From a virus (taxonomy: Duplodnaviria > Heunggongvirae > Uroviricota > Caudoviricetes > Ackermannviridae): DNA of 61,238 bases. The notes under the pieces are model-generated. The model did not search any database. It was not told the DNA's origin and worked only from the letters and a program-made list of their open reading frames with translations. Shown piece by piece: positions 34,571 to 57,567 of the stretch. Both the position numbers and the translations under genes were made by a program. The stretch's first letter is position 1. Every line of letters starts with the position of its first letter. The stretch lies in the IMG/VR virus record IMGVR_UViG_2974514734_000001, positions 96,683-157,920 of that record. One strand, given 5' to 3'.

Positions 34571-34592
34571 AAAAAGAGGCCGAAGCCTCTTT
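34571..34592 (-). terminator. Intrinsic terminator (UUCG loop)
   Basis: Minus strand: aaagaggc-ttcg-gcctcttttt. Confidence 0.85.
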
Positions 34593-34812
34593 AATCGTCG
34601 TATTGGCCTGTCCTGAAATTCCATTTTCGCGCCTTGGATAAATCCAAATCTTTGAAAATGCTGCCAAAGATCTTTTTAAAATCAGACTCTTCTTCAAGAT
34701 CTTTTGGTTTTTTGACAGGCTCCTTGACCATACCGCCTTCGGGTTTCCCCACATCGGCGGTCGTGGTTGCCGGAGCAGAAGAGTCTTCAAGGAAATCCTG
34801 GAAGCTCTTCAT
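34591..34812 (-). CDS. Putative internal head protein with capsid-targeting sequence
   Basis: N-terminus MKSFQDFLED matches the T4 IP signal MKTYQEFIAE; late operon context. Confidence 0.6.
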   Translation of the reverse strand: MKSFQDFLEDSSAPATTTADVGKPEGGMVKEPVKKPKDLEEESDFKKIFGSIFKDLDLSKARKWNFRTGQYDD

Positions 34813-54819: not shown

Positions 54820-55365
54820 ATGAATATGCCAAAAACTCCTGTCCGTATCGCAGTTGAGCCTCTGTTGTCCCAGGCTGAAGACGCCGCAGTCATGTCGGCA
54901 ACGAATATTATTAACAAAGTCATGGAAGATTTAGAATCTCACGGCTGGGATATTAATGCTTGTGCTCCATGGCCGTCCAGCGTAGGGATAAGACTTGGTC
55001 ATCCAGATTACGTGGGCATGAAATCTAAACATACATTGTATCATTCATTGGTTCAACTCGTTTCTTCAACATATCAGCCTGGTAAACCAGAAATTGTTAA
55101 GCGCGACCCAGACCGTCAAAAACGATTTATTGATGAAGCTCGTCGTAACGCTGCATTTCAATATGAAGCATTCATCATTAAACTAGAAAATAAAATCGGT
55201 GGGCACAGTGATGCAATCTTAAAGGGTTCCCATATCTGGGATTATTCGATTCTGGAAGTGACTACACCAGAGGGAATTGAATATTGGAAGACACACACGA
55301 TCATCAACGTGTCGAAACTCGGCAAAATTTTTAACCAATATCCAACAAGAAAGGTCAAAGCATAA
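54820..55365 (+). CDS. Hypothetical protein
   Basis: 181 aa; AAGGA RBS; ends NVSKLGKIFNQYPTRK. Confidence 0.8.
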   Translation: MNMPKTPVRIAVEPLLSQAEDAAVMSATNIINKVMEDLESHGWDINACAPWPSSVGIRLGHPDYVGMKSKHTLYHSLVQLVSSTYQPGKPEIVKRDPDRQKRFIDEARRNAAFQYEAFIIKLENKIGGHSDAILKGSHIWDYSILEVTTPEGIEYWKTHTIINVSKLGKIFNQYPTRKVKA

Positions 55366-55392
55366 ACAAGGGGGCAATAGCCCCCCTTGTTT
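55364..55392. terminator. Bidirectional terminator between convergent genes
   Basis: aaacaagggggc-aata-gccccccttgttt. Confidence 0.75.
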
Positions 55393-55849
55393 ATTTCCCA
55401 TCCCAAAAGTCGTCTTCATCGTCTACTTCATCAAACGCAGAATCCAATTCTTCGTCAGAGTACTCTGGAAGACGACCATTCTGTTTCAGATATTCAATTT
55501 CGTCATCTTCCAATTGAAGATCCGTGGCTATAAACAGCGCCCCTGTTTCTTCATCGTGCTCAATACTGTAAGATGTATATTCAGCACCCTGGACTGTAAT
55601 GATGATAGACGTCGGGTCTTCTGGGTCCACATGGGCTTCAAACGGGATACCGTCAATCGGGGCGTCCTCTAAAAATGTAGCAAGAGCTACGGCGGCGCGG
55701 ACGACGTCTGTCCCTTGCACGGAAGCATAAATCTCTTCAGCGCCTGTTTCCCCGCGCTCAAAGAATTCAATCGTAGTCCCGTCTTGAACACCAGTCCAGA
55801 TAGGCATGTCTGCTGGGGAATCCGCTTCAAATAATTTCGAAATTGGCAT
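55391..55849 (-). CDS. Acidic late hypothetical protein
   Basis: GAGG RBS; CTAAATAG upstream at 55881-55888. Confidence 0.75.
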   Translation of the reverse strand: MPISKLFEADSPADMPIWTGVQDGTTIEFFERGETGAEEIYASVQGTDVVRAAVALATFLEDAPIDGIPFEAHVDPEDPTSIIITVQGAEYTSYSIEHDEETGALFIATDLQLEDDEIEYLKQNGRLPEYSDEELDSAFDEVDDEDDFWDGK

Positions 55850-55884
55850 GGTAATGTCCTCTTGAATAAACTGCTTTGGACTAT

Positions 55885-56334
55885 TTAGGCTTCTCTGGTC
55901 GCCAGCCCTGGCTTAAACACCACCATTTCCTCAACGTTATTGGCACTCATAGAGGCTATGGAATCGAACCCTTTGTTGATAAGTTCTTTCACATTATCAT
56001 GTATCTTACCAGGCTTTATCCCCAACTCACGCATTTTATTTTCCCACACCGAAACATTGTTGGAATCTATTACAAGAGTCTTCTTGGCCTTGACACGAAA
56101 TGCCATGACGACAGGTTCACCAGATTGACGATAGCGCACGGCATTTTCTGCGTAGATCTGTGCCTTTTCTGGATCCCCCGTCAGGTAAAACCCAGCACCC
56201 ATCGTACCAGAGTCAGTCTGGCCAAATTTTTCAAAATCAAATATATCGAATTCAACATTAGACCCATGATACAAAACGATATTCGTAAAATCAGGTAACG
56301 TTGATTCGCGATAAAATTCTAGAAAGGTTTTCAT
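55885..56334 (-). CDS. ADP-ribosyltransferase-fold protein (H-Y-E clade, ART-PolyVal-like) with capsid-targeting N-terminus
   Basis: LYHGS, GAGFYLT, EEMVVF; N-terminus MKTFLEFYRE. Confidence 0.7.
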   Translation of the reverse strand: MKTFLEFYRESTLPDFTNIVLYHGSNVEFDIFDFEKFGQTDSGTMGAGFYLTGDPEKAQIYAENAVRYRQSGEPVVMAFRVKAKKTLVIDSNNVSVWENKMRELGIKPGKIHDNVKELINKGFDSIASMSANNVEEMVVFKPGLATREA

Positions 56335-56356
56335 AGATACCCCACACTGGTCGTAT

Positions 56357-56367
56357 GGGGTATTTAG
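56357..56367 (-). promoter_or_regulatory. Late promoter CTAAATACCCC
   Basis: Matches the late-type motif recalled for Vi01-like phages. Confidence 0.7.
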
Positions 56368-56373
56368 GATGGA

Positions 56374-57567
56374 TTAGCTGGGGACAAACTCATTCACAGG
56401 GACATGTTGGGGCATTGATAATTCAGGACAAGCAGCTTTCATCGCTTCCTGATATGGCTTGCTACCCACGATCCAAAACAATGAGTTCTCATTAAGCAAT
56501 TCTGGTTTGTGTTCCTGTATCCATGTCATCACCTTCCCTTCATAACGAGGATGCAACTCAATATCTCCCCACTGGTAATCCATGAGGTCGTTATAACGAA
56601 CCCAATTAGTGGTATGAAGATCCCAATGGTGCACCTCAAAGCGAGGAAGCACGATATCCGGCTCGTTCTTTGGCCTGATACCACTTAGGAGGCCAGCCAG
56701 CGAAACGCTCTTAGAGGCATGCTGAAGATCCTTCTTACCATACACATAGTCTGGGTTGTCGTGATAGCGACGAGTGAAATCAGTTATGTGAGGGAGGTTT
56801 GCTTGCTTACCGATAATGCGCAAACGACTTTCAATGAAATCTAATCGGTTTGGTCCAATCCCGATCAGATAGACATTCTTCAGATTTGGTTTCGGATGCA
56901 TCGCTAAACCTGTCAGGATACTGGTGCATGAATTACAAGAACCAGCAGGAATGATCAGATCAGTGATATGGTCTGGGATATTGGCAACCTGCTCGCCACC
57001 CAGCATATGGAATCCAGCAATGCGTTCTGGTGAATGAACGGTATGATCCAATGTAATGCCATATTCCAGATAATACGCCTTTGGATTTAATTGTTCAATG
57101 AGTTTCTTACAGCGCGGCTGAATGGTGCTATTGTAACCAGATCCAACAAAGTTGAACTCACTACCAAACCATGCTGACATTGAAACCATATCATGGTTCA
57201 TGCATGTGGTTGGTTTAGTGGCACCCAGCACAGTGGTTGTCTTGCCGCCGAAATGCCGTGAGACTGCCGTCGCCATAGGGGACTGTGGACTACCAACGAC
57301 AGTACCATGGATAAGATCTGGGGATCCTCCCGCTTTAAGATGCTCCATCATGAGCCAGATGGCCTGACGGAGTTTGCTGCCATTGATCCCCTGCTTGCCA
57401 TTCATATAGCATGACAAAGGCGCGAAGTAATCTTCACGTTTGAACCAAACCTGCTGATTGGTTTCTGGATTGGCAATGAGTTCGCACGGGGTGTGTTTGT
57501 AGAGATAATCTTCCCAATGAACCAAATCGCGGTTGAGGGAAAGGGTATCGAAGATGGTTTTGTTCAT
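56374..57567 (-). CDS. PLP-dependent enzyme (fold type II), probable serinyl-DNA decarboxylase of the hypermodification pathway
   Basis: VWFKREDY, NGSKLRQ (PLP lysine), PAGSCNS, YEGK motifs. Confidence 0.8.
   Translation of the reverse strand: MNKTIFDTLSLNRDLVHWEDYLYKHTPCELIANPETNQQVWFKREDYFAPLSCYMNGKQGINGSKLRQAIWLMMEHLKAGGSPDLIHGTVVGSPQSPMATAVSRHFGGKTTTVLGATKPTTCMNHDMVSMSAWFGSEFNFVGSGYNSTIQPRCKKLIEQLNPKAYYLEYGITLDHTVHSPERIAGFHMLGGEQVANIPDHITDLIIPAGSCNSCTSILTGLAMHPKPNLKNVYLIGIGPNRLDFIESRLRIIGKQANLPHITDFTRRYHDNPDYVYGKKDLQHASKSVSLAGLLSGIRPKNEPDIVLPRFEVHHWDLHTTNWVRYNDLMDYQWGDIELHPRYEGKVMTWIQEHKPELLNENSLFWIVGSKPYQEAMKAACPELSMPQHVPVNEFVPS

Follow-up and report, generated by a model that had tools for sequence, protein, structure and literature searches.

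The stretch of DNA analysed here (the window, 61,238 nucleotides of IMG/VR virus record IMGVR_UViG_2974514734_000001) corresponds to bases 96,683-157,920 of the 157,920 bp genome of a ViI-like phage of the Ackermannviridae (Kuttervirus), and it shows 98-99% identity with the Salmonella Kuttervirus phages BSP101, Se-B and SFP10. On its minus strand there is a gene for a protein of 149 residues which we assign with high confidence to the H-Y-E-type ADP-ribosyltransferases (ARTs) of the ART-PolyVal family. Its first ten residues, MKTFLEFYRE, have the form of the capsid targeting sequence (CTS) of the internal proteins (IPs) of phage T4. The complete mechanism that we propose, in which an active H-Y-E ART is made late, packaged by means of this leader and injected, is in our judgement fairly probable.

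In this scheme we infer the targeting function of the leader in Ackermannviridae, its cleavage site, the injection, the enzyme activity and the target. The gene product would be catalytically active as a mono-ADP-ribosyltransferase of the H-Y-E (diphtheria toxin/PARP) group, and transcription of the gene would start at a gp55-type late promoter lying within a hairpin, with the ribosome site exposed on late transcripts only. By its leader the ART would reach the gp22-type scaffolding core inside the T4-like prohead, as would at least three further proteins with the same leader, and the gp21-type prohead protease might then cut the leader off after Glu10. The enzyme left after this processing, about 139 of the 149 residues, would remain in the DNA-filled head, enter the next cell with the DNA and, using host NAD+, modify a host macromolecule ahead of any phage gene expression.

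Part of this picture is already known, namely the ART annotation, the detection in virions and the notion that phage ARTs are packaged in heads. The GenBank records of STP-4 and SeF3a label the gene 'ADP-ribose transferase', UniRef gives an ART-PolyVal-like domain protein, and phrog_4700, to which the gene corresponds, is an ADP-ribose transferase in Gendre et al. 2022 (PMC9409062). Iyer et al. (2017, PMC5512222, and 2022) argue that phage ARTs are often packaged in the head and injected, in myoviruses especially. In the literature we found no paper in which the capsid targeting sequence of T4 is connected with this ART or with another protein of the Ackermannviridae.

Predicted fold and catalytic motifs of the enzyme

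The protein reaches 42.2 bits with the Pfam family ART-PolyVal (PF18760, cut-off 31.2), with residues 19-142 lying on model positions 7-127 of 140, and in the whole-genome scan it was the sole match of this family (40.6 bits). Its score with the related Pfam family DUF3990 fell just under the cut-off of that family. By an exhaustive HMMER search 590 proteins were collected at E <= 0.001, and the best matches beyond the close orthologues are domains within polyvalent proteins of 1,500-7,300 residues. The AlphaFold2 model, built with 21 homologues, had a mean predicted local distance difference test score (pLDDT) of 79.5 and showed the split-sheet ART fold of the H-Y-E clade. When it was compared with the PDB by Foldseek, the structures retrieved were ADP-ribosyltransferases and toxins of related kind that use NAD+, namely 6kyf, exotoxin A, tankyrases, PARP4, diphtheria toxin, MbcT and ParT. 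The original prediction had named a non-ART fold, such as an RNase, as one outcome that would speak against it, and the matches found were of ART type only. A search of PDB sequences with the ART family profile gave no significant relative.

The three H-Y-E motifs that had been read from the 149-residue protein, LYHGS, GAGFYLT and EEMVVF, are all present (Table 1), and the description of the protein as a minimal ART is fair for its length. The histidine is located on strand 1 in an H-G-[ST] context and the two tyrosines, on strand 2 and the helix behind it, follow the Tyr-X10-Tyr spacing, as in the H-Y-E clade. Residues H23-G24-S25, Y50, Y61 and E136 and the GQTDxGxxG loop are all invariant among the 21 homologues, down to 60% identity. 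With the broad family profile, exotoxin A was also matched at a marginal E of ~0.01-0.03; its YHGT aligns with YHGS of the ART and its GFYIAGDPALAYGYA with GFYLTGDPEKAQIYA. We take the matched residues of exotoxin A to be His440, Tyr470 and Tyr481, the histidine and the two tyrosines of the NAD site of the diphtheria toxin group. Glu136 lies at a predicted strand start in the context E-x-V-V-F, which matches the pattern of diphtheria toxin, exotoxin A and PARP (Glu, then hydrophobic residues). The Pfam score, the ART-only structural matches and the invariant catalytic residues thus bear out the identity first proposed for the protein. It is not a member of the R-S-E clade, with its active site of Arg, Ser-Thr-Ser and Glu-x-Glu, to which Alt, ModA and ModB of T4 belong; BLASTP of the ART against Alt gave no similarity.

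The H-Y-E assignment has to face two observations that speak against it. Iyer et al. 2017 (PMC5512222) give the ART family of polyvalent proteins as H-Y-D, and in the wider ART-PolyVal alignment the residue at the position of E136 may be E, Q or H; the acid that stays the same family-wide is D124 (G-[YFH]-D-[SG]). E136 and D124 are both candidates for the catalytic acid. The same variation of the strand-5 acid across the wider family, together with the fact that activity is predicted from sequence, would also suit a catalytically dead ART fold kept as a structural or binding protein of the head. We regard this as very improbable, given that the clade keeps the histidine, both tyrosines, Glu136 and the GQTDxGxxG loop without variation, and that the gene is cleanly lost in some lineages without replacement, unlike a structural component.

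Another possibility is that the protein is packaged and injected and acts on something other than protein, either on nucleic acid, as DarT and Tpt1 do, or by consuming or phosphorolysing NAD+ in the manner of RES and MbcT. This seems improbable to us: the closest matches in sequence and structure are the protein-modifying diphtheria toxin, exotoxin A and PARP, depletion of NAD+ would hurt the phage, the thymidine hypermodification 5-NeOmdU was reconstituted without the ART, and protein targets are predicted for the ART-PolyVal clade (PMC5512222). We also set aside a role of the ART in thymidine hypermodification, on the same ground that the 5-NeOmdU pathway was reconstituted without it (PMC5889632). 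A search of the genome with Pfam Macro (PF01661) gave no match, and the 'ADP-ribose binding protein' that a core-genome table lists was not located.

By comparison with known systems, the nearest relatives are the ART-PolyVal domains of polyvalent proteins (PF18760, a clade related to Tox-ART-HYD2; PMC5512222), which belong to the same Pfam family and are likewise predicted to be delivered by the virion and to act early on host proteins. The phage ART differs from them in being a standalone protein, unfused to MuF, portal, RNA polymerase or other effector domains, in carrying a leader of T4 IP type as presumed delivery device, and in its strand-5 Glu against the H-Y-D of the family. T4 Alt offers the functional model: it is an ART of late synthesis that travels in the head, is processed at its N-terminus and is injected; it is, however, a protein of 682 residues of the R-S-E (Alt/VIP2) clade, and its N-terminus is different and lacks the CTS of IPII and IPIII (PMC9958956).

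Among the structural matches, 6kyf is presumably AcrIF11, a phage ART of minimal size whose substrate is the type I-F CRISPR complex. The match to it was weaker than to the diphtheria toxin group, AcrIF11 is made after entry and is not known to be packaged, and no link of the present ART to CRISPR was seen. A match to the pre-ejectosome protein of cyanopodophage A4 (PDB 9k3a chain B, residues 1419-1600) is kept as a lead only; that protein comes from a podovirus and has more than 1000 residues, and its authors describe no ART domain in it.

The leader and the proposed contents of the head

The resemblance of MKTFLEFYRE to the packaging signal of T4 IPII and IPIII, on which the original prediction of an injected effector was built, proved to be real and conserved. 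In the translated T4 record, IPII and IPIII begin with MKTYQEFIAE and IPI with MKTFKEFTST. The leader of the ART has M, K, T, E6, F7 and E10 in common with IPII and IPIII and MKTF-EF with IPI, and it has the form MKT[YF]xEF..E of T4-type internal proteins. Among the 21 homologues MKTF is invariant and L5 nearly so, while the enzyme body falls to 60% identity, and MKTF is unchanged over four genera. Some small standalone homologues at 39-50% identity also begin with a tag of this kind (MKTFEQFLKE, MKTFLEYITE and MLTFEAYLAE). The leader lies outside the ART fold: the structural alignments begin at residues 10-17, and in the model the leader is a helix of low confidence (pLDDT 48).

Searching for the T4 pattern as defined a priori, MKT[FY].EF, the ART protein was the sole match in the genome. 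The wider form MK.F.[ED][FY] gave 4 matches among 1670 Met positions (six frames, at least 50 residues downstream), and all 4 are genuine gene starts. The expectation by chance from the amino-acid composition (~210 genes) is 0.006, a statistic that is indicative only, the pattern having been widened after the matches were seen. The other three matches are proteins of 189, 80 and 73 residues (Table 1), none of which matched a Pfam family. The leaders of the 189-residue and 80-residue proteins are kept in Dickeya phage JA15. The ART and these three small proteins may make up the head cargo of ViI-like phages.

The genome also encodes a head set of T4 type, with Portal_T4 at 496.1 bits, Peptidase_S77 (gp21-type) at 98.9, T4_CASP (gp22-type) at 154.8 and Gp23 at 408.8. 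The function of the CTS has been described in T4 (PMC3012670, PMC9958956; Mullaney and Black 1996, as reported in these two papers). Like IPI, IPII and IPIII, the ART has the MKT[FY]xEF...E leader, small size, late expression and an accessory presence or absence, and it likewise comes from a genome encoding a T4-type scaffold and a gp21 protease. The T4 proteins differ from it in not being enzymes of this kind, IPI being an inhibitor of a restriction enzyme, and the similarity is confined to the leader.

Presence in virions, as found for internal proteins bearing a CTS, is given by the literature and the sequence records. The record of LIMEstone1 labels the orthologue, ORF173, a 'confirmed structural protein' and has a putative late promoter marked just upstream of it, and the paper on this phage reports ORF173 by mass spectrometry (17.33 kDa, 11.84% coverage, 1 peptide). 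According to the same paper, all 12 of the LIMEstone1 structural proteins labelled unknown have a counterpart in the ViI virion; the label of the ViI orthologue Vi01_183 is 'phage associated protein'. The 189-residue leader protein is 'phage associated' in Vi01 and an 'unknown structural protein' in JA15. The original reading of the ART is partly supported: ORF173 is confirmed as structural and a ViI counterpart is stated, with a single peptide behind the LIMEstone1 identification. The virion evidence for the ART orthologues is real but thin.

A further virion protein, of 795 residues (Vi01_094c, whole-genome positions 76403-78790), starts with MAIQSFLNFLDESKQLDEA, and its JA15 version with MSKPSFLQFMQEKDQLDEA. 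An Alt-like front end, considered for it, was not borne out: the pairwise BLASTP against T4 Alt gave a non-significant E of 0.55, with a best local alignment that joins the N-termini.

The virion signal might instead be carry-over of a late cytoplasmic enzyme that acts in the producing cell only, for instance on proteins of host or phage in assembly or lysis, with MKTF reflecting a preference in translation initiation. The LIMEstone1 detection, by one peptide in a table where probable contaminants are listed as well, would agree with this, as would the frequency of AAA as a second codon. Against it, MKTF is invariant across genera although it lies outside the ART fold and the body falls to 60% identity, the leader recurs in three unrelated proteins, of which one is virion-associated too, and detection is reported in two phages. 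Carry-over of this kind we therefore think rather unlikely, and packaging of the ART into the head through its leader quite probable; its injection with the DNA would follow with moderate probability.

As to the processing of the leader, Glu10 is the sole Glu between the tag and strand 1; of the 21 homologues, 13 have Glu and 2 have Asp at this position. At P3 of the putative site there is Tyr in this protein and Phe or Leu in its relatives and in the sibling leaders, a hydrophobic residue as in the I-A-E of T4. Among the rows covered of the Sajous1 virion table S3, which were tailspike rows only, there was no peptide of the ART, and none starting behind residue 10 of the ART or of the sibling leader proteins, a result that carries no weight either way; the list of 10 proteins in the phiD3 paper was of no help here. 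Cleavage exactly after Glu10, proposed from these sequences, we hold to be slightly less likely than not.

Several points weigh against packaging and processing as proposed here. Starts with MK- are frequent in well-translated genes. In 6 of the 21 homologues residue 10 is non-acidic; in four of these residue 11 is the acidic one, and the other two lack an acid at both positions. T4 gp21 prefers Leu or Ile at P3. The gene itself is accessory and dispensable in many relatives. In the LIMEstone1 table the single peptide of ORF173 stands beside one-peptide detections of rIIB, ligase and gp44, which the authors of that paper call unexpected. A CTS function in Ackermannviridae would be by analogy, and the experiments showing a CTS at work concern T4 alone.

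Late-type promoters within predicted hairpins

The late promoter claimed for the gene was recovered as CTAAATACCCC, a motif of late type also seen before tailspike and endolysin genes. The 158-kb genome has 4 copies of it, against ~0.08 expected for an 11-mer, and the other three sites precede large tailspike-type open reading frames (ORFs). The span first predicted for the gene ended at position 56367, which is the first base of this motif. The 40 nt between motif and ATG are nearly identical in Kuttervirus, Limestonevirus, Taipeivirus and Agtrevirus, where only five loop bases vary. In a divergent Ackermannviridae-like metagenomic contig with a 50%-identical ART, the motif is present as AATAAATAACCCATA behind a terminator.

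At this locus the 3' part of the promoter pairs with the region of the ribosome site in an 11-bp hairpin (Table 1). The RNA that contains the motif folds at -18.7 kcal/mol (z -4.65), while the RNA from the predicted +1 (a T4-type late start, ~6 bases past the motif) folds at just -2.1 kcal/mol. No terminator was found between the upstream gene for a pyridoxal phosphate (PLP) enzyme and the ART gene. In the sole declared RNA run, a metatranscriptome available as contigs, an 18-kb contig covers the region, which bears on neither transcription nor start site nor strand. The stems of the ART locus are invariant across the orthologues, which leaves no covariation support at this locus.

The same design was found in eight late-type leaders of the genome, belonging to the three tailspike genes, a 242-residue ORF, a 502-residue ORF, an endolysin-like gene, a 199-residue ORF and the ART. 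It consists of [CT]TAAATACC, followed by an inverted repeat in which the promoter 3' part pairs with the ribosome-binding region (GGGG or GGAGGTATT). The stem sequences vary from site to site and the pairing is maintained. Read-through RNAs fold at -8 to -20 kcal/mol (-15 to -20 in all but one of the eight), and the late-start RNAs at 0 to -5. In T4, genes e, 49 and I-TevI are known for a late arrangement masked by a hairpin. Probably, the start sites being predicted ones, read-through transcripts are translationally silent and the late-initiated ones alone are translated. With the late promoter set inside a hairpin, it would be understandable that late genes just behind earlier genes stay untranslated until late.

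Genomic setting, distribution and significance

The coordinates of the features are given in Table 1.

Table 1. Features of the ART locus and of the related leaders and promoters. Positions are those of the window unless the whole genome is indicated.
Feature	Position	Strand	Remarks
ART gene	55885..56334	minus	149 aa and stop, from the ORF and its translation; orthologues Vi01_183, LIMEstone1 ORF173, kage_200; phrog_4700
Leader MKTFLEFYRE	56305..56334	minus	residues 1-10; T4-type CTS; putative prohead-protease site after Glu10
Predicted product from Ser11			STLPDFTNIVLYHGSNVEFDIFDFEK, its start if cleaved after Glu10
Motif 1, LYHGS	56260..56274	minus	residues 21-25 (His23-Gly24-Ser25), NAD-binding His; aligns with YHGT of Pseudomonas exotoxin A
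Motif 2, GAGFYLTGDPEKAQIY	56152..56199	minus	Tyr50, Tyr61 (GAGFYLT is residues 46-52); aligns with RGFYIAGDPALAYGY of exotoxin A
Motif 3, EEMVVF	55915..55932	minus	residues 135-140; Glu136 putative catalytic Glu; strand start, position and sequence context like diphtheria toxin, exotoxin A and PARP
Late-promoter-type motif CTAAATACCCC	56357..56367	minus	33 nt upstream of the ART ATG
Hairpin, 11 bp	56337..56363	minus	promoter 3' part AUACCCCAUAC pairs with ribosome-site region GUGUGGGGUAU; predicted late start near 56355 inside
Hairpin-type late leaders	whole genome 5766, 9294, 11530, 40286, 43464, 82977, 94091; window 56337-56367		
189-aa leader protein, MKPFIEYFKE	whole genome 78842-79411		behind its own CTAAATAC motif
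80-aa leader protein, MKGFQDFLLKE	whole genome 79421-79663		immediately after the 189-aa gene
73-aa leader protein, MKSFQDFLED	34591..34812	minus	directly downstream of a Hoc-like immunoglobulin (Ig) protein; phrog_4805
PLP-dependent enzyme	56374..57567	minus	upstream neighbour of the ART gene; Pfam PALP 31.4 bits (below cut-off 35); phrog_3650
Very acidic 152-aa virion protein	55391..55849	minus	downstream neighbour; Vi01_184, LIMEstone1 ORF174, phrog_3852

The upstream PLP enzyme is Vi01_182, that is, ViI gp226 (Vi01 note 'orf00226'), and gp226 is among the five genes sufficient for the reconstitution of 5-NeOmdU in vitro (PMC5889632). Its orthologues in related phages are variously annotated as threonine ammonia lyase or threonine dehydratase. 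The acidic downstream gene has its own CTAAATA promoter at 55882-55888, and the ART gene ends in a TAA stop that sits within this CTAAATA. The acidic protein was considered as a dedicated partner or immunity protein of the ART and set aside: by tblastn, 264 phage records carry it and 212 carry the ART, and in a divergent relative it lies apart from the ART. At window positions 55359-55364, contigs of related phages have 373 additional bases, which match a 375-bp ORF of phage kage (kage_198) that is absent here.

The ART gene is missing or deleted in about a fifth of the relatives. In Klebsiella phage Magnus the PLP gene directly adjoins the acidic gene, and the ART gene is absent from Serratia phages. 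In Shigella phage MK-13 (positions 2360-2465 of the compared sequence) the promoter, the hairpin and the first ten codons are joined to the last thirteen codons. This remnant is an internal deletion, apparently by recombination between two CGTGAG repeats, and one A has been lost from an AAAACC run. In the lineages without the ART no other leader-tagged gene was found in its place. It is noted that records (OR844942.1 and others) labelled Enterococcus phage Efm 3-10 and a Pseudomonas phage hold an ART gene 99-100% identical to this one; they are probably mislabelled or contaminated.

One could speculate further that the leader marks a small exchangeable set of injected proteins (the ART, the pair of 189 and 80 residues, and the 73-residue protein near hoc), in which the ART would serve pre-emptively against host defence and ADP-ribosylate a component of host immunity. 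We consider this extension unlikely. If it were true, chemistry like that of AcrIF11 would be delivered as protein within seconds of DNA entry. Such a role would also account for the retention of the ART in phages of Salmonella, E. coli and Dickeya and for its deletion in many relatives from Klebsiella, Shigella and Serratia.

Returning to the proposed mechanism of a packaged and injected ART, the phages concerned are widely used in the biocontrol of Salmonella, E. coli O157 and Dickeya. The ART offers a practical system for the action of a pre-loaded ART in the first seconds of infection, because it is small, it is cleanly lost in some lineages and its phages are easily grown and edited. If the mechanism is true, it would be a natural H-Y-E ART carried as head cargo, beside the R-S-E Alt of T4, and if the leader works as in T4, the injected proteins of Ackermannviridae would be predictable from sequence alone.
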